From IMG/VR virus record IMGVR_UViG_3300008108_000036: 64,000 bases of DNA; one strand, 5' to 3'. This DNA comes from a virus. Within the stretch, counting starts at the first letter, position 1; every line of letters starts with the position of its first letter. Below, one piece after another: positions 1 through 28,139 of this stretch. A program made the position numbers and the translations under genes. The notes under the pieces were generated by a model that did not search any database, had not been told where the DNA came from, and saw only the letters and a list, made by a program, of their open reading frames with translations.

Positions 1-1348
1 CGCTTGGTTTTAATCTCAACAATTCTCGTATCAACCAACTATCTTCACATTCGAAGGAGCTTAGATATGACTCGAATGTTTCTGATTTTATAGCCTTATG
101 TGTTGTTTCGTGCTGTGAAGCAGCACTTGAGAGATATGAAAACATTGATTTTGCTTTAGTGAAAGAATCTCGCATGGTTGTAAAAAGAACAGGATCGAGA
201 CCCCAGTTGTCACAAATAGCTTCAATTATACCCGATAAAATAAACTGAATGCCGTGTGATTGTATTACAATAGCAAAAACAAAAAAACGAAAGCTGTGTA
301 TGTTTGCAAGTAAATCGTCTAGATATATAGTAGAACTATAATCATCCACTCTTTCAACCTTCTCGTTTTCTTCGCATAAGTTTTGATAATCATAGACTAA
401 TAAAGTTAAGCAAGTTTGGTCCGTTCTTGTTAAAACCGACACTCTACGAAGACAAAAATTCCATAAATGGCTAGACGTTTCGTTCCATTTGTTTTGTAAC
501 CCATACCATGTCATTACTCGAGTTAGTACTCCTTCTATATAAGTTCCTGCGCATTTTGGTATATGGAGAAATACGGGGACTTTTCGACAATTATTTGACA
601 GATTCTGCTTAATGTTGTTTTTTTGCGTTTTTAGTTTTTTAATTAAATCTATATGAGTATAATAGAAGTTTTTCGTGTGAATTACGACAGCTTCATTTTT
701 TTTGTCTTTGTGATGTAAATTGAAATCATCAATATCTGAAAGGTTTAATATTGATTTACTGTCAACACAATATGATGAATAGCTGTCTTTCATTGCTTGA
801 TGTAAAGCAAAATCATAATTTGTGTGAATGTTTTCAAGATTGTGAGTTAAGAAAAGCTCGTTTAATAACTGTAGAAATTTACTACTTCTGTTATAAACAG
901 CTACTCCGTTCATGTGGTTTGAATAATCTTGTGGGGTGTTTTCAACCGTTTTCCATTTATTTCCGTAGTATGTTGAACCACAAATAAACCATTCAGACTT
1001 ATTTAAGGATAAAATCTCACGATTAAGATGTTCGTCAAATCTTGGAAATATGGCACAATCAGATTCCAACAAAAGAATTTTTTTATACTTTTCTGGTTCA
1101 TAATTTATTAAAAAATGAAAAACTTTTGTTGTTGGATTCAATACGGTTGTGTCGTCAACGACAATGAATTGTATTAAAGAACTAAAGCCAATTAAAGATG
1201 ATAGGTTGGCTTTAAAACTTTCTTTATCTAAAAACACACAAATGTCTATTATTCTTGTTTTGTGTTTAAAAATGCTTTTGATAAGTCGTGCTAATCGTCC
1301 ATCTTCGATTTCTTTTGAGCAAGATTGTATAAAAATTGCATCTAACAT
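1..1348 (-). CDS. Partial (runs off left edge) glycosyltransferase-like + sulfotransferase fusion protein
   Basis: Manual translation from ATG at 1348 (MLDAIFIQSCSKEIEDGRL...) is open to position 1. N-half has LLLESDC and NHMNGVAVYN (GT-like). C-half has FLHIPKCAGTYI and TMRDSFTKAKSMFSYL, the PAPS-binding motifs of Sulfotransfer_2. Absent from ORF track because there is no stop in the window. Confidence 0.75.
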   Translation of the reverse strand, partial: MLDAIFIQSCSKEIEDGRLARLIKSIFKHKTRIIDICVFLDKESFKANLSSLIGFSSLIQFIVVDDTTVLNPTTKVFHFLINYEPEKYKKILLLESDCAIFPRFDEHLNREILSLNKSEWFICGSTYYGNKWKTVENTPQDYSNHMNGVAVYNRSSKFLQLLNELFLTHNLENIHTNYDFALHQAMKDSYSSYCVDSKSILNLSDIDDFNLHHKDKKNEAVVIHTKNFYYTHIDLIKKLKTQKNNIKQNLSNNCRKVPVFLHIPKCAGTYIEGVLTRVMTWYGLQNKWNETSSHLWNFCLRRVSVLTRTDQTCLTLLVYDYQNLCEENEKVERVDDYSSTIYLDDLLANIHSFRFFVFAIVIQSHGIQFILSGIIEAICDNWGLDPVLFTTMRDSFTKAKSMFSYLSSAASQHETTHKAIKSETFESYLSSFECEDSWLIRELLRLKPS

Positions 1349-3729
1349 ATGCTTGTAATTATGCTTTCAGATAATAGATGTAAATTAATTTTGTAGTAAT
1401 TTGTTTTTATGTAGTCTGTTGTATTATCAGCTTTTTTATAAAAAACCGAGGTGTTACCAAAGTAATTGAATTCTCCTAATCGTTCTAAATTAAGAAGGTG
1501 CGTTTTACACTTATCAGCTAGCTCTTTCTTAATATTTATTAAGGTATGTTTTTCTGTTTGTATTTTGTATTTTGTTTGAACCTCGATGATTTCCGTCAAT
1601 TCGATTTTTTGTTGTTCTGTTGATTTATTCTTTAAATCATTAACTATATACTGTAAAAATACTGGATCTGCACAACGTTCATCGAAAATTAAACTTTGAG
1701 TTGTACTTTCAGACTGGCTAAGTCGCTTAATCAATTTTTTAAAATTGGCTGGACATAAATGAGATAGTCTTTTCCAAAAAGCGTTAAACGTTTCCGTCAA
1801 AATATGCTGTTGAAAATCTATTAGGAAAAAATGCTCAGGACTTAATTGTGTATACAGTGAACCTACTAAAGTTTCTATTTGAGGAAAAAATTGAGTAGAA
1901 CAATGTTGTATATAGTGATTTATATTAAAATTTTTAATTGTTTCTATAGAAGAGTTTTCTATCCGTTTAATTGCTTTAAATTTTAGATCATCATATAAGT
2001 TGTCTACTAAAAATATAGAGTTAATTTCAAGAAAATTATTCATTTCATCGTAAAAATAATTAAATATTTCTGTTCCTGACATAACAAACTGCTCTCCTAA
2101 TAATAAAATACTGTCTTCTTTTATTGTTAGAGAGATGTAACGTAATAAAGAAATTAAAGCTCTGTGTTCTGATTCGTCAGTTAGCTTGAGTAGTTGTCTG
2201 GCTAATGTATTATGTAAGATTCTAGACGGATCAGAAAACCACGATGTTATCTCCCACCGAGACGTTTTAAACTCTTTTGCTAAACGTTCGTTTAAAAATA
2301 CTATTTGATCGTTAGCAGCAAGGTATTCCATTAGGCTTAAAACTTTTCTAGGAGCATAACAAAACATGCAAAATAGCTTTGGGGTGTTATTTTTTGCTGT
2401 TGTTTTATGTTTAACATTAATATAATCGTTGGTTTTTTCAAATAATTGTGAAATGTCTAATATGTGTTCTAATATATCATTGCGTTTTAAAATTTCTAAA
2501 AAGACAATAAGCGAGCTTTCAAAAGTTATTTCGGTTTGTAATTTTTGAATATTATTGCTATTGTTCAATTCGTTGCTCGTAATAGGCGACTTAAAATTTT
2601 GTTGTACAATACTATTCCATGAAACATTTGAAATATTATCTTTTATAATAAAGTCTTCATTTAAATCATTTGTTGTAACTTCAACAAACTTTGTATTATT
2701 GGTTAATAAACTATTCTCTCGTACGTGTATTCCTGTATGCTTCCCGAAAAACGCAAACGTGACAGGGTTGGATAAAATGTTTACAAACACGTTTTTGCTT
2801 AAGATTACATTAATATTGCTGATATAAATATTCTCAGATCGAGTATAAGACCATTTATTGAAGTCAGATACCGTCACTGTTCTGCCAACTGTACTTTCTT
2901 TAGATATATGTTTAGCTCTACATCCGTCATTGAAAGAAATATTATACTCAATTGTTATATTAGTATTTCCACCCATCACACTAATAAATCCGCCTGCATT
3001 GTCTCTACAAATATTGTAGTTCACATGAATAGAGTGGTTGTTCTTTTTTAAATAAACGGCTGTTGAGCGAATTTCTCCAAAACATGAAGTTATTTCATTT
3101 TTTAATATTTTAACATTTGAACAATTTTCAATTGTAACACCCGAAGATCCTTTTGTTGAAATATCTGATGTTAGAAATTTTCCAGCTCTTGTTATTTTAT
3201 TGAGTTCGATTAAACCATGTGTTACATGGTTTAAGAGTATTGCTGTAGAAGATGTATTTCTAATTTGGTTGTTTTTTATTATAACATTTTTAAAAATATT
3301 AGCATTATTATCCAAATAAATTGTTTGAGAAGTTCTTAGTAAAATTGCGTGACATGCAATGCCTTCAAATTCACAATTTTCTATACTAATATTTTCTATT
3401 TTAATATTATTTCCTAGCACGTTAAACTCTATTGATGATTTAGACGAATCTCCTGTATATATGTTGTGCATATAAACATTGCTGATAAAAAACCCGCCAA
3501 ATAATTCATTGTGGGTTGATTGATTTATCAAATTACCAAATGTAAAATATATTTTTCCGTGCCTTATTTCTAAATTTTCTATATGAATGAAACTGCAGTT
3601 TTTGAATTGTATGCATTGGTGTCTATCTGGCGAAGGAAGTATGACGGGTCTCTTTAAGTGTTGTGATGAAGAGCTATCATACCAATTTATTTTAATCGGA
3701 TTATCTAATCGGATTATCTTTAGTTCCAT
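1342..3729 (-). CDS. Right-handed parallel beta-helix (pectate-lyase-like) protein, C-terminal part of a frameshifted gene
   Basis: Repeated I-x-I-x-N-N-x-I beta-helix pattern over the first ~390 aa; C-terminal domain of unknown function. Confidence 0.7.
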   Translation of the reverse strand: MELKIIRLDNPIKINWYDSSSSQHLKRPVILPSPDRHQCIQFKNCSFIHIENLEIRHGKIYFTFGNLINQSTHNELFGGFFISNVYMHNIYTGDSSKSSIEFNVLGNNIKIENISIENCEFEGIACHAILLRTSQTIYLDNNANIFKNVIIKNNQIRNTSSTAILLNHVTHGLIELNKITRAGKFLTSDISTKGSSGVTIENCSNVKILKNEITSCFGEIRSTAVYLKKNNHSIHVNYNICRDNAGGFISVMGGNTNITIEYNISFNDGCRAKHISKESTVGRTVTVSDFNKWSYTRSENIYISNINVILSKNVFVNILSNPVTFAFFGKHTGIHVRENSLLTNNTKFVEVTTNDLNEDFIIKDNISNVSWNSIVQQNFKSPITSNELNNSNNIQKLQTEITFESSLIVFLEILKRNDILEHILDISQLFEKTNDYINVKHKTTAKNNTPKLFCMFCYAPRKVLSLMEYLAANDQIVFLNERLAKEFKTSRWEITSWFSDPSRILHNTLARQLLKLTDESEHRALISLLRYISLTIKEDSILLLGEQFVMSGTEIFNYFYDEMNNFLEINSIFLVDNLYDDLKFKAIKRIENSSIETIKNFNINHYIQHCSTQFFPQIETLVGSLYTQLSPEHFFLIDFQQHILTETFNAFWKRLSHLCPANFKKLIKRLSQSESTTQSLIFDERCADPVFLQYIVNDLKNKSTEQQKIELTEIIEVQTKYKIQTEKHTLINIKKELADKCKTHLLNLERLGEFNYFGNTSVFYKKADNTTDYIKTNYYKINLHLLSESIITSIC
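3693..3718. repeat. Exact 13-bp tandem duplication (taatcggattatc x2) causing a frameshift
   Basis: 3693-3705 and 3706-3718 are identical; the unit contains the inverted repeat TAATC-G-GATTA. Confidence 0.95.
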
Positions 3730-3934
3730 GCAAGTTTTTAAACATTACTGTATCAGTAAATACAGAACCTGACTTGAGTAAAATTTTGTCACCCGGACCG
3801 AGTGGATCATTTATGTGATATAAAGCTAATTTATTTAAAGTTTTCCAAGGGCAGTTAACGTGGGTTCCTACATTTTCGTCACAACCGTTTATTGAGTCTA
3901 TATAAAAAGTTTTATTTGTAATGTTTTTTAACAT
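3701..3934 (-). CDS. N-terminal fragment of the beta-helix protein, separated by a 13-bp duplication
   Basis: TFYIDSINGCDENVGT...PWKTL...GPGDKILLKSGSVF is the typical N-cap of beta-helix enzymes. Ends DNPIR* exactly where the downstream ORF reads DNPIKINWY. Confidence 0.7.
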   Translation of the reverse strand: MLKNITNKTFYIDSINGCDENVGTHVNCPWKTLNKLALYHINDPLGPGDKILLKSGSVFTDTVMFKNLHGTKDNPIR

Positions 3935-3969
3935 ACTATGTGTTTATTTATTTAAACGTATAGCATAAC

Positions 3970-4965
3970 TTACATACGTTGAATCGTATAAACCGTATGT
4001 TTATATAAATTACAAATAGTAGTAAAAATCTCAGTCAATTCTTCATCGTAATAGCTTTCTGATAAATAATTCAAATATCTTTTATATTCGCAACTATTAT
4101 TCCAATCTTGATTTCTATAAATTCTTTCTTGGAATACTTGCTTAATATCAGGTTTTAAATATTTAAAATGTGCTAATATAAAATGTTGTTGGGTTATATT
4201 TAAATGTCTGTTTGATTCCGTCCAGTTGGAGTATGCAATTTCAGGAGGCCACCAACAAGTAAAATCTTTTGGTAATATCCAATGCATCCCCACAGAAAGA
4301 TTATGAGTATCGTAAAAATCATATTTAAAAAAACTTTTTTTGGTTAAGCAGACTGAGCTGGAATTAGGTTTTTTGTTACCATTTAAAATAACGTGTCTCA
4401 AACCGCCTTTTATTTCATAAGAGTTGTCGGGTGCTGCTTTAGAGTATATCGTTTTTTCAGTAAACTTGTGAAAATAACATGAATGTTCAAAAAAAGAAGT
4501 TCCGGTCGAATATGCAACTCCATCAAACCTCTTGGGATAAAAGTCGACGAGACAAGTTTGTGCAATATTAGTTTTTTGGTTTTCCATTTGTAATACTGAA
4601 TCTTGTACTGTAGTACTACTACTCGGAAGAACTAAAATTTCATCTATATCTACGACCAAGCACCATTTATTGTGCATTTTTAAATTAAGAATTTCGTTTA
4701 CCCAAGCAATTCCATAATTGGCCTTCGAATATGAGTCGCTACAAGAATACAATTCTAGATTTAAGTCATTCCGATTCTTTAAATACTCAATAGTACCATC
4801 GTTTGAATTGTTGTCAATAAAAATGAAGTGAGTTACTCCTAGGGTTTTGTAGTACTGTATAAAAAACGGCAGCAATAACAATTCATTCCATATCACACAT
4901 ATTAAGGTTACATCAACTATATTAGTGTCTACGTTTACGTTATTTTCTTTTATACATTCTAACAT
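3970..4965 (-). CDS. Glycosyltransferase family 2-like (Glyco_tranf_2_4 type)
   Basis: NELLLLPFFIQYYKTLGVTHFIFIDNNSNDGT and WCLVVDIDE (DxD). Confidence 0.8.
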   Translation of the reverse strand: MLECIKENNVNVDTNIVDVTLICVIWNELLLLPFFIQYYKTLGVTHFIFIDNNSNDGTIEYLKNRNDLNLELYSCSDSYSKANYGIAWVNEILNLKMHNKWCLVVDIDEILVLPSSSTTVQDSVLQMENQKTNIAQTCLVDFYPKRFDGVAYSTGTSFFEHSCYFHKFTEKTIYSKAAPDNSYEIKGGLRHVILNGNKKPNSSSVCLTKKSFFKYDFYDTHNLSVGMHWILPKDFTCWWPPEIAYSNWTESNRHLNITQQHFILAHFKYLKPDIKQVFQERIYRNQDWNNSCEYKRYLNYLSESYYDEELTEIFTTICNLYKHTVYTIQRM

Positions 4966-4966
4966 A

Positions 4967-5581
4967 CTAGTGGTTTAAATCAAATGTATAATCAAACATT
5001 TTAATATCTGTCAAAAAATATTGTTCTACTATTTTTTTCGTTTTTGTAGTATAAAAATCCGAATAATGTGTTTTATTATTTGACCCATTTAACTGCAGTA
5101 ATGGTGACCATTCAATTTCTAAGACATTATTGCATATACGCTTAAAGTCTTCGTTAATTGTTTCAAACCGTCCGAGAAAATTGACGTCTAATTTGCCAGT
5201 GCTATCGGTTATAAACTTTGATGATTCGGTAAACACAAAGTTCGGAGCAGTTAAAATAAATTCTTCAAAAGAAATATTATCTGAGATTGAGTATTTACTT
5301 TGTTTATGTAATTTGAGATAATTATACCAAGATACTACTTTGTCCCAAGGATTTCTTACAAATCCTATAGTATTTATATTTGATACATTATAATGTTGTT
5401 TTACTGCCATTAAAGAAGCATGCTTTCCGCTAACATCACCAAAAGGTTTATTAGTTTCTTTGGTTTTAATGTGTGGAAAGTCATTTTCTTCACAGTACAA
5501 TGACAAAAAAGATTCTATAGAAGTTGTTCCGGTTTTTGGCACTGCAATGAAGCAGAAAGATAGAGGCTTACAGTAAATCAT
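4967..5581 (-). CDS. Sulfotransferase family 2 protein
   Basis: FIAVPKTGTTSI (5'-PSB), FVRNPWDKVVSWY (3'-PB), FLGRFE, C-terminal DIKMFDY. Confidence 0.88.
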   Translation of the reverse strand: MIYCKPLSFCFIAVPKTGTTSIESFLSLYCEENDFPHIKTKETNKPFGDVSGKHASLMAVKQHYNVSNINTIGFVRNPWDKVVSWYNYLKLHKQSKYSISDNISFEEFILTAPNFVFTESSKFITDSTGKLDVNFLGRFETINEDFKRICNNVLEIEWSPLLQLNGSNNKTHYSDFYTTKTKKIVEQYFLTDIKMFDYTFDLNH

Positions 5582-6342
5582 AAATCAAAGTTGATTTCAA
5601 TATTTCTAAAAAACTCGAGTTCGTTTTTAATTAAAAAATCTATTTTTGTTAATGTTGCATCGGAAAACACAGTTCGAATATTTGGATATTTATAACTTTT
5701 ATGAATATCTATAGCAGAAATTTGTTTGATTTGATTTTTATCTGCATTGTTTTCAATCCTATAAATGTTATTGAATATATTGTTTGTTTTTTTGTGTAAA
5801 TGTTTGATCTTATCATAATACTGCTTTCTCCAAATAAATTTATATATACGTTCGACGACAGAAGTGTCATAAAATAAGCTTAACGTAGACGAAATACGGT
5901 TCGGAAGCAAAGCAACAAATGTATTAAGACTACTAACTTTCTTTTCAAAATGCGTTAAAATCCATTCTTTGATTTTATTAACTTCTTCTTGAGTGCAATC
6001 TTCAGTTTTATGTTCAATATAAGAAGAAAACGAACGCTCGAATTCCAAATGAGTATCGTTCAGAGAGTAATTTTCTAGATATTCCGAAAAAAGCCGATAA
6101 TAAGGATTGCGCCAAAAAATTATTAATTTAAATTCGTCTAAATTGTCACAATTCGTTACAGGTTTAGCATAAAATTTATCATAAATCTTATTGTTTATTT
6201 TGTAGTTTTGCTCCTTTTTGTTGTTTAATATTACTCCATTTTCTAAATGAGTTACAATTTCTAACACTGCTGGATAAGGGGAAATATCGGACCATAAGCA
6301 AACAGCTTTAGAATTTCCTTTTATTAATTTATGAAGTTTCAT
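5578..6342 (-). CDS. Divergent sulfotransferase-like protein
   Basis: IIFWRNPYYRLFSEYLE 3'-PB-like motif; similar layout to 13329..14183, but the 5'-PSB lysine motif is degenerate. Confidence 0.5.
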   Translation of the reverse strand: MKLHKLIKGNSKAVCLWSDISPYPAVLEIVTHLENGVILNNKKEQNYKINNKIYDKFYAKPVTNCDNLDEFKLIIFWRNPYYRLFSEYLENYSLNDTHLEFERSFSSYIEHKTEDCTQEEVNKIKEWILTHFEKKVSSLNTFVALLPNRISSTLSLFYDTSVVERIYKFIWRKQYYDKIKHLHKKTNNIFNNIYRIENNADKNQIKQISAIDIHKSYKYPNIRTVFSDATLTKIDFLIKNELEFFRNIEINFDL

Positions 6343-7001
6343 GATTTAATAAATGATTTTATTTGCTCAATAAAATAAGAATCTTTTGTTATATCGCCTT
6401 GAATAACATTGATATCAGTTTGTGTATTTAAAAACGTTTCGATTTTTTCTTTTTTGCTTTTAATTCTTTTTGCTATTGACTCCTCATTCTCTGACCAATT
6501 TTTCATGGAGCTTGTTAATACTTCGTTATCAGAGCGTTTTAAATATATGTATTTTACAGTGCGATATAATTTATTTAATATATTTAAAAAATTTAAATTT
6601 TCATACATGTCCCATCTAATCTCTTTAAATCCTGTAATTTGTTGGTTATAATATGTAGTTAAAGTTTTAATTAATTTATAATTTAACGTTTCATATGCAT
6701 CGCAATTATGGTACATTTCATTACCAATATAATAGTCAACTCCAGCTATTTGTGTTTGCAATTTAGCATCGGCCACTGTTTTTATGCTTTTTTTTATATG
6801 AGGGTGGTTAGAAATATGAGTTAAAAATTCATTTAAACAATCAATAGTTTTTAATAAACTTAAAGTTGTACCCATATCCTCTCCATAAATTGTAGTATTA
6901 CAATCTCTGTTAAGTTGATTCATAACAAACGTAGACCCACATCTCCCAACGCCCATTATTATAACAAACGTCGAGTTTATCATAAATAATGATCTAAGCA
7001 A
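6339..7001 (-). CDS. Sulfotransferase (P-loop-like fold)
   Basis: IIMGVGRCGSTFVMNQLN, GFKEIRW, KYIYLKR motifs. Confidence 0.75.
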   Translation of the reverse strand: MLRSLFMINSTFVIIMGVGRCGSTFVMNQLNRDCNTTIYGEDMGTTLSLLKTIDCLNEFLTHISNHPHIKKSIKTVADAKLQTQIAGVDYYIGNEMYHNCDAYETLNYKLIKTLTTYYNQQITGFKEIRWDMYENLNFLNILNKLYRTVKYIYLKRSDNEVLTSSMKNWSENEESIAKRIKSKKEKIETFLNTQTDINVIQGDITKDSYFIEQIKSFIKS

Positions 7002-8842: not shown

Positions 8843-8847
8843 AAAAA

Positions 8848-8876
8848 TTATTAAATCGAAATTGGCATTTTGTCAA
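8848..8876 (-). promoter_or_regulatory. Sigma70-like promoter for left glycan operon
   Basis: TTGACA-N17-TAATAA, 5 nt before ATG at 8842. Confidence 0.55.
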
Positions 8877-8929
8877 CTAATATCTTTATGTGTTTGACCT
8901 TAATCAGACCATAGCTTAAGTTATGTTAA

Positions 8930-11437
8930 ATGTCTCAAAATTTTACTCCACGTGCTCAGCAAGCCTTAGCTTTAGCAAGAAAAGAAGCTGAAAATTTAAA
9001 TCACACTTACATAGGAACAGAACACTTGTTGCTAGGATTTTTAAAACTAGGTCAAGGATTAGCATTAAAAGTATTACAAGAGTTAGGAGTAACTATAGAA
9101 ATTGTTTACGAGATAATTAAAAATAATTCTTCTGAAAATAATAACTCGCTACTAAATTCTAAAAAAGAGAATATCCCGATTACACCTAGAGTTAAGAAGG
9201 TTTTACATTTAGCGGAAAAAGAGTCTAAAAAAATGGGCCATACATATGTTGGAACGGAACATTTATTGCTAGGATTATTGAAAGAAACTGAGGGAGCTGC
9301 TGCAACAATTCTACAGCAAGAGTTTAATATTAATTACGAAAAAGCAAAAGAGCAAATACTAAAAGAGATCGATCCGAACTATCAAAGCAATGAACCTGTA
9401 CTAGCTGGTCAAGAAAATTTTCAAAAATCAAGCTCATCAAAAAAATCTACAGCACTTAAAACATACGGAAAAGATCTAACAGAATTAGCAAAAAACGGAA
9501 AGCTCGATCCTGTTATAGGTAGAGTAAATGAAATCGAAAGGACTATTCAAATTCTTTGCAGAAGAACAAAAAATAATCCAGTTTTAATAGGAGAAGCTGG
9601 TGTTGGCAAAACAGCTATTGCTGAAGGATTAGCACAAAAAATTATATCAAATAATGTTCCTGAGTTACTGTTAAATAAACAAGTTATTACATTAGATTTA
9701 GCTTTATTGGTTGCAGGAACTATGTATAGAGGTCAATTTGAAGAAAGATTGAAAACTGTAATGAATGAAGTAAAGAAAAACGGAAATGTTATTTTGTTTA
9801 TAGACGAGCTACATACAATCGTAGGAGCAGGATCCGCTTCAGGGTCAATGGACGTTTCTAATATTTTTAAGCCTGCTTTAAGTAGAGGTGAACTTCAAAT
9901 CATTGGAGCAACTACGTTAAATGAATATAGAAAGTATATAGAAAAAGATACTGCGCTGGAAAGAAGGTTCCAGCAAGTTAAAATTGAGGCTCCGAGCGTC
10001 AATGACGCTATTCAGATTTTAAAAGGAATCAAACATAAGTACGAAGAGCATCATAAAGTTATATATACAGACGAGGCACTAGAATCAGCATCACTGTTGT
10101 CGGATAGATATATTTCTGATAGATTTTTGCCAGATAAAGCAATCGATTTAATCGATGAAGCAGGATCTAGAGCAAGAATTAACTCCACAATAAAGCCCCA
10201 AGATTTTACTACCTTAGAAAATTCTATTACAGAATTAAAAGCTAAAAAACAAGAAGCAATTAAAAATCAGGAGTTTGAAAAGGCCGCAGCTACGAGAGAT
10301 CAAGAGCGTAGAGCTACTGAATCGTTAGCTGAAGCTCTAAACAAATGGAAGAAAACTAACAAAGAAAATATCGTTACGGTGAATAAAGAGGATATTATAA
10401 CTGTATTATCTAAATGGACAGGAATCCCTTTGTCGAGAATCGATGAAAAGGAAGCAGAAAAATTATTACAGTTAGAACAAACTCTAGAAAAGCGAATTAT
10501 CGGTCAAGAGGAAGCAATAAAAGCTGTGAGTACAGCAATTCGTAGAGCTAGAGCGGATTTAAAAGATCCAAAACGTCCTATAGGCACTTTTTTATTTTTA
10601 GGTCCTACAGGAGTCGGTAAAACATTTTTAGCAAAAAATATTGCTGAATTAATTTTTGGCAATAAAGATTCGCTTATTCAAATTGATATGAGCGAATATA
10701 TGGAAAAATTTTCAGTTTCCAGATTAATAGGATCTCCTCCTGGTTATATCGGTCATGAAGAAGGAGGACAATTAACAGAGAAAGTCAGAAAAAATCCTTA
10801 TTCTGTAGTTCTATTTGATGAAATAGAAAAAGCTCATCCTGATGCTCTACATTTGTTATTGCAAATATTCGAAGAAGGAATTGTTACGGATTCGCTTGGT
10901 AGAAAAATAGATTTTAAAAATACAATTGTAATTCTCACTTCAAATGTTGGAGCTACCTTTGCTTCAAAACAAACTAACTTGGGATTTGGAGTAAAAAATG
11001 AACCAAACACGAATTATGAGACAATGAAAGAAAAAACTATGAGCGAAGTTAGGTCTTTTTTTAAGCCAGAACTTTTAAATCGAATGGATAGCATTGTTGT
11101 TTTTAAATCTTTAACTACAGAAAACATTAAATTAATAGTTCAATTAGAGGCTTTGTGTTTAATTAATCGATTAAAAGAAAACAAACAAATTACGTTAATT
11201 CTTGATGAGTTAGCTGTAGAATTTATTGCAGAAAAGGGTTCTAAAAACGAATATGGCGCTCGTCCGATTAGAAGAGCGATTGAAACTTATTTGGAAAATG
11301 CAATAGCCGAAAAAATCTTAAGCGGTGCTATAAAGAACAAAGAAACAGTAATTGCGACCGTATCGGCTGACAATAAAAATAATATAACTCTATTAAAAAA
11401 TCAAAATAAAAAACAACGTAAAAAGAATTATTTTTAA
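8930..11437 (+). CDS. clpC: ATP-dependent Clp protease ATP-binding subunit ClpC
   Basis: Two Clp-N repeats (FTPRAQQAL..IGTEHLLLG), Walker A GEAGVGKT and GPTGVGKT, UVR coiled coil (QEFEKAAATRD), LGF ClpP-docking loop. Confidence 0.95.
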   Translation: MSQNFTPRAQQALALARKEAENLNHTYIGTEHLLLGFLKLGQGLALKVLQELGVTIEIVYEIIKNNSSENNNSLLNSKKENIPITPRVKKVLHLAEKESKKMGHTYVGTEHLLLGLLKETEGAAATILQQEFNINYEKAKEQILKEIDPNYQSNEPVLAGQENFQKSSSSKKSTALKTYGKDLTELAKNGKLDPVIGRVNEIERTIQILCRRTKNNPVLIGEAGVGKTAIAEGLAQKIISNNVPELLLNKQVITLDLALLVAGTMYRGQFEERLKTVMNEVKKNGNVILFIDELHTIVGAGSASGSMDVSNIFKPALSRGELQIIGATTLNEYRKYIEKDTALERRFQQVKIEAPSVNDAIQILKGIKHKYEEHHKVIYTDEALESASLLSDRYISDRFLPDKAIDLIDEAGSRARINSTIKPQDFTTLENSITELKAKKQEAIKNQEFEKAAATRDQERRATESLAEALNKWKKTNKENIVTVNKEDIITVLSKWTGIPLSRIDEKEAEKLLQLEQTLEKRIIGQEEAIKAVSTAIRRARADLKDPKRPIGTFLFLGPTGVGKTFLAKNIAELIFGNKDSLIQIDMSEYMEKFSVSRLIGSPPGYIGHEEGGQLTEKVRKNPYSVVLFDEIEKAHPDALHLLLQIFEEGIVTDSLGRKIDFKNTIVILTSNVGATFASKQTNLGFGVKNEPNTNYETMKEKTMSEVRSFFKPELLNRMDSIVVFKSLTTENIKLIVQLEALCLINRLKENKQITLILDELAVEFIAEKGSKNEYGARPIRRAIETYLENAIAEKILSGAIKNKETVIATVSADNKNNITLLKNQNKKQRKKNYF

Positions 11438-12231
11438 TGAAAATAAGCGCAAACGAAATAACAGCCATTACTAATAAAATTAAAGAAGATGTCGTTGTTA
11501 TAACGTTCGTTGATTTCAAATATATTGAAATATTTAGAATATTTTACAAATTTTGGAAAACCCACGAGTTAAATAATTTGATTGTCGTTTGCTTAGATGA
11601 AAAAACAAAACAAGAAATCGAGAAGTTATGCATTCCATGCATTTATTTTAAATATGTTGTCTCTTGCAAACCAGAATTCTGGGCAATTCGTTTAGATATT
11701 ATTAACTCTATTTTTACAAGTTCAAAAAAAACGTTAATACATACCGACGTTGATTGCTTTTGGATTAAAAATATAATACCTTTACTAAGTTGCTTTGAAC
11801 AAGATGTAATATATTCAACTGGAAACGAATATCCCAAGCACCTAGCAGAAAAATACGGTTTTGTATTGTGTTGTGGGTTTTTTGTAATAAAATATAAGGA
11901 AAATACTAAAAATTTTTTTAATAATATAATACAAAATCATATAAAAAATACGTCCAAGCTAATAGACGATCAAATAGCAACCAATGAGTGGATTTTTTCT
12001 AAAGTTGCTTCTATTTCTCTAATCGATCAGCCTTCAAAAAAACATCCTTCACAAAATATCAACATAAGAGACGTTTCGATAGTTGGTCTTCATAGAGGAT
12101 TGATAACAAGGTGGACAAATCCACCTAAGTGGGCAATCGATGAGTGTTATTGTTACCATCCGTACTTAACCGGCAATATATCAGATCGCTTATTTCAGCT
12201 TGAACATTTAACTTCTTTATATAATTGTTAA
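11437..12231 (+). CDS. Nucleotide-diphospho-sugar transferase (GT77-like)
   Basis: IHTDVDCFW (DxD), LCCGFF, DDQ motifs. Confidence 0.75.
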   Translation: MKISANEITAITNKIKEDVVVITFVDFKYIEIFRIFYKFWKTHELNNLIVVCLDEKTKQEIEKLCIPCIYFKYVVSCKPEFWAIRLDIINSIFTSSKKTLIHTDVDCFWIKNIIPLLSCFEQDVIYSTGNEYPKHLAEKYGFVLCCGFFVIKYKENTKNFFNNIIQNHIKNTSKLIDDQIATNEWIFSKVASISLIDQPSKKHPSQNINIRDVSIVGLHRGLITRWTNPPKWAIDECYCYHPYLTGNISDRLFQLEHLTSLYNC

Positions 12232-12244
12232 CACCATTTAATTT

Positions 12245-12451
12245 ATGAAAACCATTGTAAACCATAATAAGAAAGAAATATTAACTATATTAAAAGCGGA
12301 ATTAAATAAAAAATATACCAAAACATTTAGCATTGCTCTTCAAGAACTATTTAAAAAGTTGTACAAAGAAAAAACTACGAAAAATCACAGCAATACGACT
12401 CTGAAAAACATATTGAATGAGATACTATCTACTACAAAAAATAAAAAATAA
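12245..12451 (+). CDS. Hypothetical protein (basic)
   Basis: 68-aa ORF filling the gap in a same-strand operon. Confidence 0.45.
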   Translation: MKTIVNHNKKEILTILKAELNKKYTKTFSIALQELFKKLYKEKTTKNHSNTTLKNILNEILSTTKNKK

Positions 12452-12457
12452 TTAGGA

Positions 12458-13315
12458 GTGACTATTCAGCCTAAACTTGTAACGGTAATCACTGCTGCTA
12501 AAAACAGTAAGTCTGTAATTAAGCGATGCATAAATTCTGTAGCTAACCAAACATATAAGCATATAGAACACATAATTGTGTTAGGAAAGTCAACAGATGG
12601 AACTAATAATGTTATTGACAGTTATATGTTAGCTAATCCGCAACATAATATACGTATCTTATATGAATCAGCACCTGGTATTTATCCTGCGTTAAACTAT
12701 GCAATTCGGAAATCGAAAGGTAAGTTCTTATTAATTTTAGGATCTGATGATTGGTTAGAACCTTTTTGTATACAAGAATTACTCGACGCTATACAGCAAA
12801 ATCGGTCCGATTTTGCTGTAGGTTATGCGAAAATAATCGACCCTAGTATACAAAAACTCGATAAAATTTTTAAAATATCGGAATTTGATGAACGAATCCT
12901 TATGGGCTTGATGCCGTTTTGTCATCAAGCCTTATTGGCTTCTAAAGAATGTTTTGATGTTTGCGGCTTATTTAACGAACAACTAACAATTGCTTCAGAT
13001 TATCAATGGATTAAACTTTTATTTTTACAAAAAATGAAAATGGCTGTAGTCCATAAGTGTGTAGTAAACTTTTATAAAGGAGGAATTTCGGATTTAAATG
13101 ACCAGTTAGCAGTAAATGAAATGATTTCTTGTATTCAAGATCAATATAATGTAAAATACGAAAATGCGAAATCTTTGTTGGATTTATTATTAGGAGAAGA
13201 ACGTATAAATAAATCCAATATAACTTCTTTAATCAAAGAGTTAACTGACGTAAATGCTGTTAAGTCTATAGCGTTGCTTTTAATGGAACAATTAGATAAA
13301 GTAAAAATACTATAA
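12458..13315 (+). CDS. Glycosyltransferase family 2 (WcaE/WfgS-like)
   Basis: INSVANQTYKHIEHII..STDGT..GIYPALNYAI..LGSDD..FCHQA..ASDY. Confidence 0.88.
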   Translation: MTIQPKLVTVITAAKNSKSVIKRCINSVANQTYKHIEHIIVLGKSTDGTNNVIDSYMLANPQHNIRILYESAPGIYPALNYAIRKSKGKFLLILGSDDWLEPFCIQELLDAIQQNRSDFAVGYAKIIDPSIQKLDKIFKISEFDERILMGLMPFCHQALLASKECFDVCGLFNEQLTIASDYQWIKLLFLQKMKMAVVHKCVVNFYKGGISDLNDQLAVNEMISCIQDQYNVKYENAKSLLDLLLGEERINKSNITSLIKELTDVNAVKSIALLLMEQLDKVKIL

Positions 13316-13328
13316 CCAAACGTTTGAA

Positions 13329-14183
13329 ATGAAATGTCATGAATTAACTCAACAACAAGTTTTAGTGTTTTGGGGACAAAAATGTGGAGCTACGTGTCTT
13401 AAAGAAATAATAATGCACTTAGATAGCTCCGGAAGCTTTTTTGATAATGGTGGAAACGACGATGTTACACATCAAATTTACGAGGTTTTTTATAAAAACC
13501 AACCAAACTATAAAGATGTAGATTATTATAAAAATCACAAAATAGTCTTTTTTGGTAGAAATCCATATCACCGAATTGTTTCATTGTATTTAGATAAATA
13601 TGTCGCGATTGATTCACCTACTCCTGAAATTAATCGAAACACGAACACTTTTAGAGAATTTATAGAGCATATATACAATGTGGGGTTTTTTTCGGAGAAC
13701 TCGCAGATTGAAATTTTTGATGGATTTTTTCCTATAACTACTGGTGAGTCCTTTTTGTTTTTTGAAGAACTTCTAATTAAACAAACACATGCGGTCTTTT
13801 ATCTTCTTCCGGACTTTTGGTTGCCTGATGGAAAATTAATTCACGACCCCGCTAATTTACGATCGTTATATGATATGGCGGGAGAAAAAATATTATTCGA
13901 AGAAATAGCAGATAGATTAACAGAAGCGTGGAATTATAAAAGCTGTTGTTTGAAATTAGCAACCAACTGTTCTGATCGTTTCGATTTTGACTGCAGCAAG
14001 AAACGTATGTGTGATTACACGGTAGCTGAATTAAGAAATGTTTTAAAAATAACTAAATTTGATGCTATGAGTTTCTTTACGAAAGAGTTGGTTGATATGT
14101 TTAATGTGCTTTATCAAACAGAACTAGCTTTTTACGATAGGAACAAAATGAGCTTTTGTAGCCTTTTAACTCATATAAAGTAA
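13329..14183 (+). CDS. Sulfotransferase family 2-like protein
   Basis: FWGQKCGATCLK and FFGRNPYHRIVSLYLDK motifs. Confidence 0.72.
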   Translation: MKCHELTQQQVLVFWGQKCGATCLKEIIMHLDSSGSFFDNGGNDDVTHQIYEVFYKNQPNYKDVDYYKNHKIVFFGRNPYHRIVSLYLDKYVAIDSPTPEINRNTNTFREFIEHIYNVGFFSENSQIEIFDGFFPITTGESFLFFEELLIKQTHAVFYLLPDFWLPDGKLIHDPANLRSLYDMAGEKILFEEIADRLTEAWNYKSCCLKLATNCSDRFDFDCSKKRMCDYTVAELRNVLKITKFDAMSFFTKELVDMFNVLYQTELAFYDRNKMSFCSLLTHIK

Positions 14184-14191
14184 TTAACTAA

Positions 14192-15382
14192 ATGAAGCAA
14201 AATCTACAAATAGCTGTCTCTTTTGATGAAACATATATAGATCAATTTCTAACTGTTGTAAATAACATTTACACGTTACACAAACAATACACAAATCCGT
14301 CACGCTGCAGCAATGATTTATTAAATATAACAGATACGCTAGAATTTTTTGTTTGCTATGATGGCAATTTATCTAATTTGCCTGCCATACAAAGCTATAT
14401 TACGTCTATTTTTCCAACGATAATTTTTAATTATAAACATGTTCCGACTGAATGCAAGGAAATTTATAAATTTTTGGTTGAAAACTATCCGTTCAGTAGA
14501 TCGAGAAATACTCTGCAAACCTGTTCTGTGTATTATAGACTATTTTTGGATACAATTTGGCCTACACTAGATGGATTAGTGTTACAGATTGATTTAGATT
14601 TAGTTTTTAAGCAACCGGTAAAATCTTTGTTTCAACTAGTATACGACATGAGCAAAACAACTAAGCATAGCTTATATGCGTGCGAATGGCCTGCCATTCA
14701 GTGCTGGGATTTTAAACTTTCAACGTTAGGACCTAACGAACAACAAGAATGGATACCAATTAGAGGAAAAACTATTCTTCAATATTATGTGGATAAGTGG
14801 TTTAAATGGTTTATCGAATGCTCTCGTACATTAAATACGCCTATTAATTACTTAGACTATTGTACTGATTTAAGCACAAAAAACGCAATACATTTTAATG
14901 CTGGAGTATTAATGTTTGATCTTACCGAATATAGACGAAATAATATCCAGCAAATTTGTAAAGATTGTGTCGTTATTCAGAAAAAATTTCATACTTTTTT
15001 TCATAACGATCAAGGACTTTTAAATTTTGTGTTTTTTAACAAAGTTGGAATAATACCAAAATCGTGGAACTTGACTGATTACGGTTGTGGTTATTATTAT
15101 CTTCTTCATCCGACTCCCGAAATTCAAAAAGAGTTTAAAGAAGCTAACATAATACATTTTAATGGGCAGTATAAACCTTGGCAACATACAGATAACATTC
15201 CTTTACATGCTTTAGAATTGTGGAAAACGTACGAACTAAGCTGTTTGAAAAATATCATACTAACTAAAGTTGCGGAAATTCCTAAACATTATAACGTAAA
15301 TTCAAATTTTAAAGAGCAGCTAATTTCAAATTTAACAAAAGTCCAAAAAAATCTTACACAAAATGACAAAATCCCCAATTAA
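14192..15382 (+). CDS. Glycosyltransferase family 8
   Basis: YYRLF, QIDLDL (DxD), FNAGVL, DQGLLN, IIHFNGQYKPW. Confidence 0.9.
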   Translation: MKQNLQIAVSFDETYIDQFLTVVNNIYTLHKQYTNPSRCSNDLLNITDTLEFFVCYDGNLSNLPAIQSYITSIFPTIIFNYKHVPTECKEIYKFLVENYPFSRSRNTLQTCSVYYRLFLDTIWPTLDGLVLQIDLDLVFKQPVKSLFQLVYDMSKTTKHSLYACEWPAIQCWDFKLSTLGPNEQQEWIPIRGKTILQYYVDKWFKWFIECSRTLNTPINYLDYCTDLSTKNAIHFNAGVLMFDLTEYRRNNIQQICKDCVVIQKKFHTFFHNDQGLLNFVFFNKVGIIPKSWNLTDYGCGYYYLLHPTPEIQKEFKEANIIHFNGQYKPWQHTDNIPLHALELWKTYELSCLKNIILTKVAEIPKHYNVNSNFKEQLISNLTKVQKNLTQNDKIPN

Positions 15383-16790
15383 CTTTTTATTTATTATTGC
15401 TGAAGATGTAGGAATAGGGGATTATTCATGTTACAATAATTACAGTAAAATTAAAACAAAAAACGTAGAAGATTTAGCAAACGGTGGAGTAATTTTTACA
15501 AACGCTCATTCGACAGCAGCATTGTGTGCTCCTGCTAGATATTCGCTTCTGACCGGCAATTATCCTAATAGACAAAGATTAGGCAATAAAGGAGAGTGGG
15601 GATTTGATGTCTCATCTTCTATTACTCCTAATCAAAAAACGTTAGCGAATATTTTGCAACAAAATGGTTATCGAACTGGTCTTTTTGGCAAGACGGGAAT
15701 AGGAGGATTATACAACAAGACAGAAACAGGAGAAATAGACTGGACAGCTCCAATGGTAGATGGTCCATCTAATTGGGGATTTGATTATTCGTTTATCATA
15801 CCTCGTGGTCATCAATGGCTTCCTTTAATCTTTTTGGAAAATAATATTCCAACTTGCGACCCTAAAACCTTAATCAGAGGTCAGCAAGCAATAGAATTTG
15901 CTAGACAAAAAAAATGTGTTGGTGGAGGCAATGAACAGCATTTTTTAAATTGGCTTGATTATGTTGATCCTAATTTTGAATTATCAAAAATTGGAGAGAC
16001 TCTCTTAACTAAAGTAGAAAAATTTTTAGATACAACCGATATGGCAAAACCGTTTTTTATGCATTTTTGTTGTGATGGAGCACATTCTCCTCACGACCCC
16101 CCTCAAACGATAAGAGGGAACGAGATATTAAATACGTGTATTAATAGACGAGACGACATGGTTTATGAAACAGATGTGCTTTTAGGAGAATTACGTAAAA
16201 TTTTAAAAACGAGAGGTCTTGAAGAAAACACAGTCATATGCTTCAGTTCGGATCACGGAGCTGTCAGTGGCGATAAAGGAAATATGCATTTAAGAGACGG
16301 GAAAAGCACAATCTACGAGGGAGGAGTGAGAGTTCCTTTGATTGTTAATTATCCTTCTAAATTTTTGCAAGGAAAAGTGTGTGAAGATTTAGTTTGTGCT
16401 ATGGATATTTTACCAACCTTTTTAGATCTTATTGAAGTACAGATTAACGAAGATGAAATGCTGGATGCGAAAAGTCTAATTCCTCTTCTTACAACAAATT
16501 CGCTTGAGCCTAACAGAAAGCATTTATTAATCAATCATGCTCACTGTTGTATAAACGAAACGAAAAACGAATGGGGAGGAGCAAGCTCGATTTATTACTT
16601 AAACTGGAAATTAATATTTGCTGGGGATGTACTGGTAGGTAACCATCCAATTGCATTATATGATTTAGAAGCAGATTCTTCTGAAACAACAAATTTGATA
16701 GACCAAGACCATTTAAAACAAACAATAGAGGAGTTGACTAGCTTAAGAACTCTTTTAAATTATAGTGTAAACACAAGAGTAACCCCTTAA
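15363..16790 (+). CDS. Formylglycine-dependent (aryl)sulfatase, Cys-type, no signal peptide
   Basis: NFLFIIAEDVG; signature CAPARYSLLTG (C-x-P-x-R); GYRTGLFGK; HSPH; SSDHG; GKSTIYEGGVRVP; LYDLEAD. Confidence 0.93.
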   Translation: MTKSPINFLFIIAEDVGIGDYSCYNNYSKIKTKNVEDLANGGVIFTNAHSTAALCAPARYSLLTGNYPNRQRLGNKGEWGFDVSSSITPNQKTLANILQQNGYRTGLFGKTGIGGLYNKTETGEIDWTAPMVDGPSNWGFDYSFIIPRGHQWLPLIFLENNIPTCDPKTLIRGQQAIEFARQKKCVGGGNEQHFLNWLDYVDPNFELSKIGETLLTKVEKFLDTTDMAKPFFMHFCCDGAHSPHDPPQTIRGNEILNTCINRRDDMVYETDVLLGELRKILKTRGLEENTVICFSSDHGAVSGDKGNMHLRDGKSTIYEGGVRVPLIVNYPSKFLQGKVCEDLVCAMDILPTFLDLIEVQINEDEMLDAKSLIPLLTTNSLEPNRKHLLINHAHCCINETKNEWGGASSIYYLNWKLIFAGDVLVGNHPIALYDLEADSSETTNLIDQDHLKQTIEELTSLRTLLNYSVNTRVTP

Positions 16791-16797
16791 GTTATCT

Positions 16798-17988
16798 TTA
16801 TGTGAGTGGTTGCAATAATTCATTTGTTAACGTTTGCATTTTTGGTGCAATATGATGAAAAAATTTTTTGTAACCAGAGCATAAATAATTTAAACCGTAC
16901 TCTCCGCCAGGTGCTCTTAAAAAACGATGCTTGGGACATTCACCATGACAGGCAAATCTAACATCACAGCGTTTACAATAATTTGGTAAGGTGTCCCGCT
17001 TGTCGTTTCCAAATTTTTTTTGCCGTTCTGAGCTAATCATATCTCCTAAAGATGATGATGTTATACTTCCTAATTTATATGACGGGTAAACATAATGATC
17101 GCACGAATAAACTGTGCCATCATGCTCTAAAGCAATTGCTTTACCGCACGTTTCACTAAATACACACAAACTATTCGGCTGCAGTCCAGACCAATTACCT
17201 AAAGTTACATCAAAAATTTGAACAAACACTTTACCTTTGTCTTTTTTATACCATTCATCGAAAACCGTTATTAAAAATTCTCCATACTGAGTAGGTTTAA
17301 CGCTCCACTCGGTAACGGGCAAATTTTTCTCGTCGTTTATTGTTGGTGGAAAAGCTAGATCAAAACTTAATTGATTAGTTTTAACATCAGGTAGCCGTTC
17401 AACTAAAGGAATGAATTGTATAAAGTTTGAGCCAATTTTTTTTAAAAAATTATAAACTTCTAGTGGTTTTTTTGAATTAATATTATTAACAACAGTTATA
17501 GTGTTAAATTCAATTTCATGCTTTTGCAATACACGTAGTCCTTTTATTACTTTTTCGTATGTTGGAAGTCCTTTTTTATCTACTCTGTATGCATCGTGTA
17601 GTTTCGGAGGACCATCTATACTGAGACCGACTAAAAAATTATGTTGCTTTAAAAAATTTCCCCAGTCATCGTTTAATAGAGTACCGTTAGTTTGAATGCT
17701 GTTTGAAACAATTTTCCCTTTGGCGTATTGTTGTTGCATTTCAATAATTTTTTCAAAGTATTTAATTCCCAGCATTGTAGGCTCTCCACCTTGCCAGGTA
17801 AAAATAACTTCTTTAGTTGGCTGAGAATCTATATACTGTTTTATATATTCTTCTAAAAGTTCTTCTTTCATTTTAAACGTTTCGTTTTTCGGAAACATTT
17901 TTTCTTTTTCTAGATAAAAGCAATATTTACATCCTATATTACACAAAGGGCCTATAGGCTTAGCCATTACATGGAATAGTTCTTTCAT
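16798..17988 (-). CDS. Anaerobic sulfatase-maturating enzyme (radical SAM/SPASM; anSME/AslB/ChuR family)
   Basis: CNIGCKYC radical-SAM motif, WQGGEP, GLSIDGP, SPASM cysteines (CVFSETC, SCDH, CKRC..CHGECPK, C). Confidence 0.95.
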   Translation of the reverse strand: MKELFHVMAKPIGPLCNIGCKYCFYLEKEKMFPKNETFKMKEELLEEYIKQYIDSQPTKEVIFTWQGGEPTMLGIKYFEKIIEMQQQYAKGKIVSNSIQTNGTLLNDDWGNFLKQHNFLVGLSIDGPPKLHDAYRVDKKGLPTYEKVIKGLRVLQKHEIEFNTITVVNNINSKKPLEVYNFLKKIGSNFIQFIPLVERLPDVKTNQLSFDLAFPPTINDEKNLPVTEWSVKPTQYGEFLITVFDEWYKKDKGKVFVQIFDVTLGNWSGLQPNSLCVFSETCGKAIALEHDGTVYSCDHYVYPSYKLGSITSSSLGDMISSERQKKFGNDKRDTLPNYCKRCDVRFACHGECPKHRFLRAPGGEYGLNYLCSGYKKFFHHIAPKMQTLTNELLQPLT

Positions 17989-18097
17989 ATAAAAATGTTA
18001 TTTCAAAACAAACAACATTCAACTATATTTTTCACAAAATTTAAACAATAACTCACTCGAGTCAAAAATATTTCTAACGAATGAGATAGTCCATAGA

Positions 18098-18172
18098 TTA
18101 AAATAGTAAACACAGAACAAGTTGATTGCTTAAACCACCTGCTAAAACAACGCTAATTGTAGGACTTTTCAT
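18098..18172 (-). pseudogene. Remnant N-terminus of a GT11 (alpha-1,2-fucosyltransferase-like) gene
   Basis: ATG overlaps the rmlC stop; MKSPTISVVLAGGLSNQLVLCLLF* resembles the GGLGNQ(L/M)F GT11 start motif, then stops. Confidence 0.4.
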
Positions 18173-27255: not shown

Positions 27256-27293
27256 TGTACGAATAATTAAATTAAGCTATTTGAAAGACAACA
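27246..27293. repeat. 48-bp exact direct repeat, copy 1 (promoter + start of sulfotransferase)
   Basis: ttgttcccattgtacgaataattaaattaagctatttgaaagacaaca identical to 28087-28134. Confidence 0.92.
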
Positions 27294-27301
27294 CAAAAAA
27301 G

Positions 27302-28134: not shown

Positions 28135-28139
28135 AAAAA

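Follow-up and report, generated by a model that had tools for sequence, protein, structure and literature searches.

We analysed the whole of a 64,000-nucleotide stretch of virus DNA, IMG/VR record IMGVR_UViG_3300008108_000036 (hereafter the window), whose source is an uncultured T4-like lake phage. An island of glycan genes at its left end finishes with a Cys-type sulfatase (15363–16790, plus strand) and an anaerobic sulfatase-maturating enzyme (anSME; 16798–17988, minus strand), which are convergent, with stop codons 7 nt apart. We consider it likely that these two genes specify a genuine phage-encoded, formylglycine-dependent cytoplasmic sulfatase together with its own maturase, accessory to an island that writes sulfated glycans; this confidence applies to that general statement and not to the trimming role discussed below. 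The sulfatase, the anSME and a GT8 glycosyltransferase form an accessory cassette at the 3′ end of an older, lineage-wide writer island. A first-pass annotation, made from the sequence alone, had proposed a single “write-and-erase” module for glycan sulfation. Its interpretation holds in part: phage origin, a leaderless sulfatase, an anSME and the rarity of the pair are all supported, and the single module is not.

The sulfatase and its maturase

Enzymes of the anSME type are radical S-adenosylmethionine (SAM)/SPASM proteins that oxidise the cysteine of a C-x-P-x-R motif to formylglycine in the cytoplasm, without oxygen. The window anSME scores 511.8 bits against TIGR03942 (equivalog cut-off 349.45) and 491.8 bits against NF010308 (cut-off 484). 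The CX3CX2C cluster (C16, C20, C23) and the SPASM cysteines (C275, C281, C296, C338, C341, C347, C351, C370) are invariant in 18 aligned sequences. Judged by these features it is a bona fide anSME, and with the equivalog cut-offs passed and all cluster cysteines present, the earlier call of an intact maturase convergent with the sulfatase stands.

The sulfatase matches PF00884 with 167 bits, and its catalytic domain begins at residue 6, with no leader. The formylglycine motif reads C55-A-P-A-R59-Y-S-L-L-T-G. These results agree with the first-pass description of a Cys-type sulfatase with a CAPAR signature and no signal peptide. R59 is invariant in all 105 aligned relatives and C55 is invariant within the clade of leaderless sequences described below. 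Across that clade, whose subclades are only 52–55% identical, C55, R59, K110, H241, D297 and K314 are all invariant; the window protein also has the Asp297-His298 pair. An AlphaFold 2 model of the sulfatase (predicted local distance difference test score 92.8, predicted template modelling (TM) score 0.94) gave 391 matches in the PDB at E ≤ 0.001, and the top-ranked entries listed were all sulfatases. S1_15 carbohydrate sulfatases that hydrolyse 6-O-sulfated galactose or N-acetylgalactosamine (GalNAc) fill all of the top 8 places among the fold matches. Members of S1_15 are also the top PDB sequence matches (E 4e-52, 24–27% identity), with TM scores of 0.76–0.81.

A search of 5.8 billion proteins returned seven close cluster representatives of the sulfatase at 52–82% identity, the full-length ones 466–475 aa long. 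Beyond these lies a gap, followed by bacterial proteins of ~525–545 aa at 38–47% identity, the few named ones being from Verrucomicrobia. In an alignment, the seven close relatives and the window sulfatase begin directly with the first catalytic-domain strand, and a hydrophobic N-terminal leader is present in all four aligned bacterial homologues (40–47% identical; two named Verrucomicrobia). The leaderless sequences form a single group in the tree (Shimodaira–Hasegawa-like approximate likelihood ratio test support 90), sister to the bacterial secreted group. The anSME shows the same pattern in that database, with seven relatives at 70–83% identity and then hundreds of bacterial proteins at 67% or less.

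Pairing of the second sulfatase and second anSME subclades was judged by a proxy, a shared longest-contig size. The sizes coincide for sulfatase P0009 and anSME P0128 (35,633 bp), for P0243 and P0126 (111,955 bp) and for P0244 and P0125 (18,251 bp), so by this proxy the two clades appear to travel together on three further contigs. The exact window sulfatase is itself recorded on three contigs, the longest of 173,481 bp. Another sulfatase, P0003, resembles P0004 over its first ~390 residues, and its C-terminal ~85 residues match the window protein exactly; such a mosaic points to recombination among phage variants that occur together.

The closest bacterial anSMEs have no close sulfatase next to them, and the genomes with the closest anSME encode sulfatases that are only 33–34% identical to that of the window. 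For the genomes searched, capture of a ready-made bacterial operon was therefore rejected, since the closest-anSME genomes lack the closest sulfatase and in none are the two adjacent. A sulfatase of this subfamily (E ≤ 1e-70) was found in only 4 of 401 sampled genomes of the phylum Verrucomicrobiota. Among species-representative genomes, the best anSMEs belong to Terrimicrobiaceae and Chthoniobacterales (62–66% identity), several of them in lake metagenome-assembled genomes. On these protein similarities, a freshwater member of Verrucomicrobiota is the probable host.

The island is phage DNA and not contamination. The GC content at third codon positions (GC3) is 0.246 for the sulfatase and 0.237 for the anSME, against 0.23–0.26 for uvsW, primase and gp46/47; the bacterial loci with the nearest anSMEs have 45–68% GC. 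Two scans of JGI metagenomes were made, the first without a match and the second giving only contig L024 (5114 bp), which is 99.84% identical to and colinear with window positions 13308–18421. The junctions between sulfotransferase and GT8, GT8 and sulfatase, sulfatase and anSME, and anSME and rmlC are therefore confirmed by an independent assembly. Host contamination had been named beforehand as an outcome that would undo the proposal; the GC3 values, the junctions in L024 and the synteny with a related phage genome (see below) all support phage DNA instead.

The writer island and the accessory cassette

For comparison we used relatives of the window phage. G001 (IMGVR_UViG_3300028569_002824, 124 kb) is the closest in IMG/VR, with a UvsW 78% identical; G002 (IMGVR_UViG_3300027708_000372, contig L106) has a UvsW 68% identical; G006 is a more distant relative of 195 kb, complete by CheckV. 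IMG/VR classes G001 as a provirus although it is colinear with the phage genes of the window throughout, a label that is probably due to its bacterial-looking glycan island. The left 18 kb of the window consist of two divergent operons that meet at 8843–8929. The genes of the island and the related genes to its right are as follows.

2–1348, minus strand: fusion of a glycosyltransferase-like domain and a C-terminal sulfotransferase domain, 3′ end cut by the window edge
1342–3729, minus strand: right-handed beta-helix protein, glycan-acting, role unassigned (795 aa; PF13229, 30 bits)
3970–4965, minus strand: GT2_4/GT92-like glycosyltransferase (PF13704, 85 bits; G001 orthologue 59% identical)
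4967–5581, minus strand: sulfotransferase with intact motifs for 3′-phosphoadenosine-5′-phosphosulfate (PAPS) (PF03567, Sulfotransfer_2, 40 bits against a cut-off of 22; phrog_3347)
5578–6342, minus strand: sulfotransferase-like paralogue of 13329–14183 (no Pfam match; lysine loop of the 5′-phosphosulfate-binding (5′-PSB) motif lost)
6339–7001, minus strand: Sulfotransfer_3-like sulfotransferase (PF13469, 21.6 bits, below the cut-off of 27; GVGRCGST motif)
6980–8842, minus strand: two-domain GT2 + GT25 glycosyltransferase, first gene of the minus-strand operon (PF00535, PF01755)
8930–11437, plus strand: ClpB/ClpC-type double-AAA chaperone, heading the plus-strand operon (Clp_N, AAA, AAA_2, ClpB_D2-small)
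11437–12231, plus strand: GT77-like glycosyltransferase, Nucleotid_trans (PF03407, 47 bits)
12458–13315, plus strand: GT2 glycosyltransferase (PF00535, 85 bits)
13329–14183, plus strand: sulfotransferase, last island gene common to G001 (PF03567, 32 bits; GQKCGAT and RNPYHRIVS motifs)
14192–15382, plus strand: GT8 glycosyltransferase, first gene of the window-specific cassette (PF01501, 82 bits)
15363–16790, plus strand: leaderless Cys-type S1 sulfatase with an S1_15-like fold (PF00884, 167 bits against a cut-off of 25)
16798–17988, minus strand: anSME, radical SAM/SPASM (TIGR03942 and NF010308, above cut-offs)
18169–18726, minus strand: rmlC, dTDP-rhamnose pathway (PF00908, 216 bits; present in G001)
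18728–19609, minus strand: rmlA, dTDP-rhamnose pathway (PF00483, 237 bits; absent from G001)
26485–27255 and 27302–28096, minus strand: tandem Sulfotransfer_3-like paralogues (PF13469, 27.8 and 23.8 bits)

For each gene between positions 2 and 14183, G001 has an orthologue, in the same order and at 29–73% identity, and it also has orthologues of most of the remaining window. GT8, the sulfatase, the anSME and rmlA are absent from G001, where the island ends at the orthologue of 13329–14183. The complete G006 has no sulfatase, anSME or adenosine-5′-phosphosulfate (APS) kinase, so sulfatase and anSME are missing together from both relatives. Matches to Sulfotransfer_2 number 8 in G001 (~7 open reading frames, ORFs), 6 in G006 and 3 in G007. 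G001 and G006 thus retain all the sulfotransferases of the island and, apart from GT8, all its glycosyltransferases; having several sulfotransferases is a trait of the lineage. With the sulfotransferases retained in G001 and G006 in the absence of GT8, sulfatase and anSME, the comparison does not support reading the write-and-erase genes as one functional module. The 5.8 billion proteins include only two relatives of GT8, and the sulfatase-bearing contigs carry neither. Therefore the conserved unit is the sulfatase plus the anSME, and the tie to glycosyltransferases and sulfotransferases drawn in the first-pass annotation is not borne out: the sulfatase has no conserved partner other than the anSME. 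The anSME gene lies downstream of rmlA and rmlC on the same strand, and the end of GT8 overlaps the start of the sulfatase by 20 nt.

The five glycosyltransferases first listed were all recovered and belong to different families (GT2_4/GT92, GT2 + GT25, Nucleotid_trans, GT2 and GT8); orthologues of the two-domain GT2 + GT25 enzyme were found in G001, G006 and G007. Likewise, the five sulfotransferase-like genes reported within 1–17988 and the two more at 26.5–28.1 kb are all where they had been placed. Their count needs qualifying, as the quality of the seven is uneven. The Pfam cut-off is passed by 4967–5581, 13329–14183 and 26485–27255; 6339–7001 and 27302–28096 fall below it, and 5578–6342 and 2–1348 have no match. 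Both PAPS motifs, the 5′-phosphosulfate loop and the 3′-phosphate motif, are present in six of the seven. The sulfotransferase at 4967–5581 carries VPKTGTT and RNPWDKVVS, and the tandem paralogues carry LHR[ST]G[ST] and RNPIAR. In the fusion at 2–1348, an N-terminal domain of ~250 aa precedes a half with HIPKCAGT (5′-PSB) and MRDSFTKAKS (3′-phosphate-binding) motifs; with no Pfam or PHROG match, its sulfotransferase call is from motifs only. It is 41% identical to a 554-aa ORF in G001, and the G001 orthologues of 6339–7001 and 13329–14183 are 43% and 40% identical, respectively. The remaining gene, 5578–6342, reads WSDISPYP where its paralogue at 13329–14183 reads WGQKCGAT, and keeps the 3′ motif alone. 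The 5′-PSB loop is degenerate in the G001 orthologue too, so this gene looks like a conserved pseudo-enzyme, probably unable to bind PAPS.

No convincing transmembrane segment or signal peptide was found in any island protein, and among the families matched in Pfam scans of the island ORFs (1–28 kb) there was no flippase, polymerase or lipid-carrier transferase. A promoter scan of the 20 kb, overall at chance level, placed its best sigma-70-like site at 8876–8847, before the minus-strand operon. There is no T4-type late promoter (TATAAATA) ahead of the operons. The sigma-70-like site and the missing late box hint weakly at early or middle expression of the island.

A search for cysC had been proposed with the original reading; it found no PAPS-synthesis gene among the ORFs of the window, and no homologue of the G002 APS kinase among those of at least 70 aa. 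Nor was an APS kinase or a PAPS_reduct-family (PF01507) gene found in G001. PAPS is presumably supplied by the host. The G002 genome does encode an APS kinase, CysC (L106 1069–1626, E 1.5e-49), ~1.4 kb upstream of the orthologue of window ORF 36713–37393; it has no counterpart in the window, G001 or G006.

Some further observations concern individual island genes. The ClpB/ClpC-type ATPase at 8930–11437 is the best-conserved island gene (73% identical in G001); its stop codon and the start of the glycosyltransferase gene that follows overlap. The beta-helix ORF is 29% identical to an 894-aa ORF of G001, and an Atlas search gave generic beta-helix matches only, below 0.8. A 77-aa ORF at 3701–3934 (minus strand) overlaps it by 29 nt in a different frame. 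Together the two correspond to the single 894-aa ORF of G001; therefore the gene is split or frameshifted, or a frameshift is needed to read it. The ~42 nt upstream of both tandem sulfotransferase starts are identical (26485–28160, beside the tRNA array), which suggests a recent duplication taking in the promoter or leader.

Possible roles of the sulfatase

Since the island proteins lack signal peptides and membrane segments, and no flippase, polymerase or lipid-carrier family was found, the glycan would be assembled and sulfated in the cytoplasm. The writer island would build it there on a soluble acceptor, most likely a phage protein, and would draw on host PAPS. The sulfatase, having lost its export signal, should therefore work in the cytoplasm of the infected cell. 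The anSME would convert its Cys55 to formylglycine, and a private maturase would give much active enzyme without reliance on that of the host. Once matured, the sulfatase would act in the same compartment as the glycan enzymes. We tentatively propose that it trims sulfate esters off the glycans made by the neighbouring enzymes, a role that would fit its place at the end of a glycosyltransferase/sulfotransferase operon. From the modelled fold, the esters trimmed would probably be of the 6-O-sulfated hexose type. Among the roles considered, trimming is slightly ahead of PAPS supply, and action on an extracellular polymer is the least supported.

A broader version of the same idea is that the lineage decorates its particles, or another phage product, with sulfated glycans that are written by at least six sulfotransferases and edited by a self-matured sulfatase. 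This is rather doubtful on present evidence. If true, it would give prokaryotic viruses their first sulfation-editing system encoded by a virus, and phages their first sulfated glycans.

Several observations weigh against editing by an active sulfatase. With a sulfatase and sulfotransferases in one compartment, sulfate would be added and removed in a futile cycle unless the enzymes had different targets or positions. The sigma-70-like best promoter site hints at early expression, which fits late virion decoration less well. Because GT8 is not on the other sulfatase contigs, the sulfatase may be linked to a glycan pathway only by the chance of where it inserted. Furthermore, the active site departs from that of canonical sulfatases. 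The GKWH histidine is missing, the motif reading GKTGIGG, and Glu14-Asp15 replaces Asp-Asp in all eight leaderless-clade sequences; the bacterial sister sequences keep DD. The Asp-Arg pair of S1_15 galactose recognition is also replaced, as the G-D-R of BT1624 (7OZE) aligns with G149-H150-Q151. In view of GKTG and Glu14, sulfatase activity is therefore an assumption.

There are answers to some of these points. The bacterial sister clade likewise lacks the GKWH histidine (GK[QS]G[FI]GG), so its absence is a trait of the subfamily and not decay, and the invariant H150 might substitute for it. The recognition triad (Asp-Arg + His) belongs to S1_15 enzymes for 6-O-sulfated galactose and GalNAc, and ~44% of S1_15 sequences are without it, their substrate unknown (bioRxiv 10.1101/2021.07.23.453482). 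The best indirect evidence is that a dedicated maturase has been kept through ~50% divergence, from which formylglycine chemistry, and hence catalysis, would be under selection. We infer that the sulfatase is active.

Supply of PAPS is a possible alternative, with nearly as much in its favour as trimming. Here the cytoplasmic sulfatase would free sulfate (and sugar) from sulfated compounds that the host imports or makes, and this sulfate would enter PAPS synthesis through ATP sulfurylase and APS kinase; in sulfate-poor fresh water, PAPS would then not run short for the six or seven sulfotransferases of the phage, and the phage’s own glycan would not be the target. The accessory nature of the cassette agrees with this, since the island works without it in relatives, as does the finding that the sulfatase has a conserved partner in the maturase alone, and none among the glycosyltransferases or sulfotransferases. 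The APS kinase of G002 suggests that PAPS supply limits the lineage, and no futile cycle arises. There is also precedent in cysC and cysH, which have been reported as viral auxiliary genes (PMC10134843). Three points stand against PAPS supply: the window, G001 and the complete G006 have no sulfate-activation gene; the sulfatase ends a glycosyltransferase/sulfotransferase operon and is translationally coupled to it; and, since bacteria feeding on sulfated glycans are generally understood to desulfate them outside the cytoplasm, a pool of sulfate esters inside it is uncertain.

It is unlikely that the sulfatase instead acts outside the cell, after lysis or on the particle, stripping sulfate from host capsule or slime in the manner of a receptor-destroying enzyme. 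A leaderless enzyme could reach the outside only through lysis, which is compatible with this role, and the same island encodes a beta-helix protein of the phage-depolymerase kind. In addition, some Verrucomicrobiota are reported to make sulfated exopolymers (PMC7356697). Against it, the sulfatase consists of the catalytic fold only, with no extra N- or C-terminal domain for anchoring to the virion, and its gene lies among biosynthetic genes and not beside lysis or tail genes. The beta-helix gene is itself embedded in the glycosyltransferase/sulfotransferase operon and may be split.

Less probable still is that the protein is another formylglycine-dependent ester hydrolase, acting on a phosphonate or a phosphate mono- or diester, or a decayed binding protein. 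The absent GKWH histidine, Glu14 in place of the first metal-binding Asp in all members of the leaderless clade, and a weak NCBIfam match to a PehA-type phosphoric/sulfuric ester hydrolase (85 bits) would be in keeping with this. However, the histidine loss is common to the large secreted bacterial sister clade and hence a subfamily trait, retention of a dedicated maturase over such divergence argues for selected formylglycine chemistry, and the nearest folds are all carbohydrate sulfatases.

Finally, we discount as highly improbable that the island comes from contaminating host DNA, from a chimeric assembly or from bacterial sequence flanking a prophage: the provirus label of G001, the bacterial appearance of the island genes and the bacterial flanks that account for the remaining sulfatase and anSME matches in phage collections are outweighed by an island composition the same as that of core phage genes, phage genes on both sides, the 99.84% identity of the L024 junctions, synteny with G001, and identities of only 40–47% (sulfatase) and 62–66% (anSME) to any bacterial protein found.

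Rarity, comparison with known systems and genome context

The first-pass annotation had called a complete sulfatase–maturase pair unusual in a phage, and a co-occurrence search of 50,697 phage records and 2.9 million IMG/VR contigs found no credible other case. Sulfatase and anSME matches in the phage records traced to unannotated faecal contigs, one of them with six sulfatase matches in 28 kb, to Salmonella and Acinetobacter assemblies filed as phage, and to prophage edges; they were rejected, leaving no credible pair in that set. A motif scan found more than 600 anSMEs in bacterial genomes and two in the IMG/VR contigs. One of these two sources, L126, has an anSME with an adjacent sulfatase, and was rejected as bacterial flank from its AraC, ABC-transporter, TonB-receptor and molybdopterin-oxidoreductase context. 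The second, a 14-kb contig, has no sulfatase. Scans of IMG/VR with the sulfatase alone, a sulfatase alignment or the anSME alone gave no matches. PHROGs holds one small unannotated sulfatase-like family and one sulfotransferase family listed as moron. In a full-text literature search, a phage sulfatase–maturase pair was not described, and phrases for phage or viral sulfotransferases and sulfatases returned one passing mention.

The enzyme families are individually familiar; what is new is the phage-borne, leaderless, self-maturing form, together with its setting. Sulfatases, like their maturases, are usually regarded as equipment of bacteria that feed on sulfated glycans, and viral sulfur genes have so far been ones that activate or reduce sulfate. 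Here a phage clade appears to keep a re-targeted cytoplasmic sulfatase with a private maturase on top of lineage-wide sulfotransferases, which points to sulfated glycans as an unstudied part of phage biology. The leaderless sulfatase and the anSME are compact, and their co-expression as a pair should be practical.

Well-known bacterial examples of a sulfatase with an anSME are Klebsiella AtsA/AtsB, Clostridium perfringens anSMEcpe and Bacteroides thetaiotaomicron ChuR. The window pair shares with bacterial pairs the same two families, the same maturation logic and genes that lie together. Unlike them, it sits in a lytic-type T4-like phage, is convergent, has a sulfatase with no export signal and with Glu for the first metal-binding Asp, and was taken over as a unit from none of the genomes searched. 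The S1_15 sulfatases (BT1624, BT3333, BT4631 and BT3109, and lambda-carrageenan S1_15A/B) are its best sequence and fold matches, but the window enzyme is only 24–27% identical to them, has His150-Gln151 for Asp-Arg and lacks the GKWH histidine.

Cytoplasmic glycosylation encoded by viruses includes mycobacteriophage virion glycosylation and the glycan machinery of chloroviruses and mimiviruses. Like these systems, the window phage has its own soluble glycosyltransferases and sugar-nucleotide enzymes and no sign of a membrane-carrier pathway. To our knowledge, none of those viral systems has multiple sulfotransferases or a sulfatase. The viral sulfur auxiliary genes cysC, cysH and cysK draw on the same sulfate/PAPS pool, and the relative G002 carries cysC. 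Those genes activate or reduce sulfate, whereas the window cassette is predicted to hydrolyse sulfate esters and needs a maturase.

The window is AT-rich throughout (GC 0.29–0.35), the tRNA array excepted. Its right half holds T4-type replication and recombination genes, namely primase, a UvsW-type helicase and gp46/47-type SbcCD, which are ~30% identical to those of cyanophage and enterobacterial T4-like phages. We know of no cultured member of this T4-like phage group, for which freshwater Verrucomicrobiota now provide a probable host assignment. Downstream of the glycan island are 16 tRNAs and one tmRNA. Between the island and the tRNA array lie a LysM-domain protein (21202–21771), a PHA02142-type RNA ligase (22052–23056; 71% identical in G001) and an HNH endonuclease (25420–25767).

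Outside 1–17988, the window also encodes a Nol/NodU-like carbamoyltransferase (34395–35825, plus strand) and a SAM-dependent methyltransferase (31054–31821, minus strand). Rhizobial Nod factors are decorated by the NodH sulfotransferase, the NodU/NolO carbamoyltransferase and the NodS methyltransferase. The window phage differs in having no chitin-oligomer synthase or NodPQ, and Nod systems have no sulfatase. By analogy only, the carbamoyltransferase, the methyltransferase and the sulfotransferases make up a Nod-factor-like set of glycan decorations.

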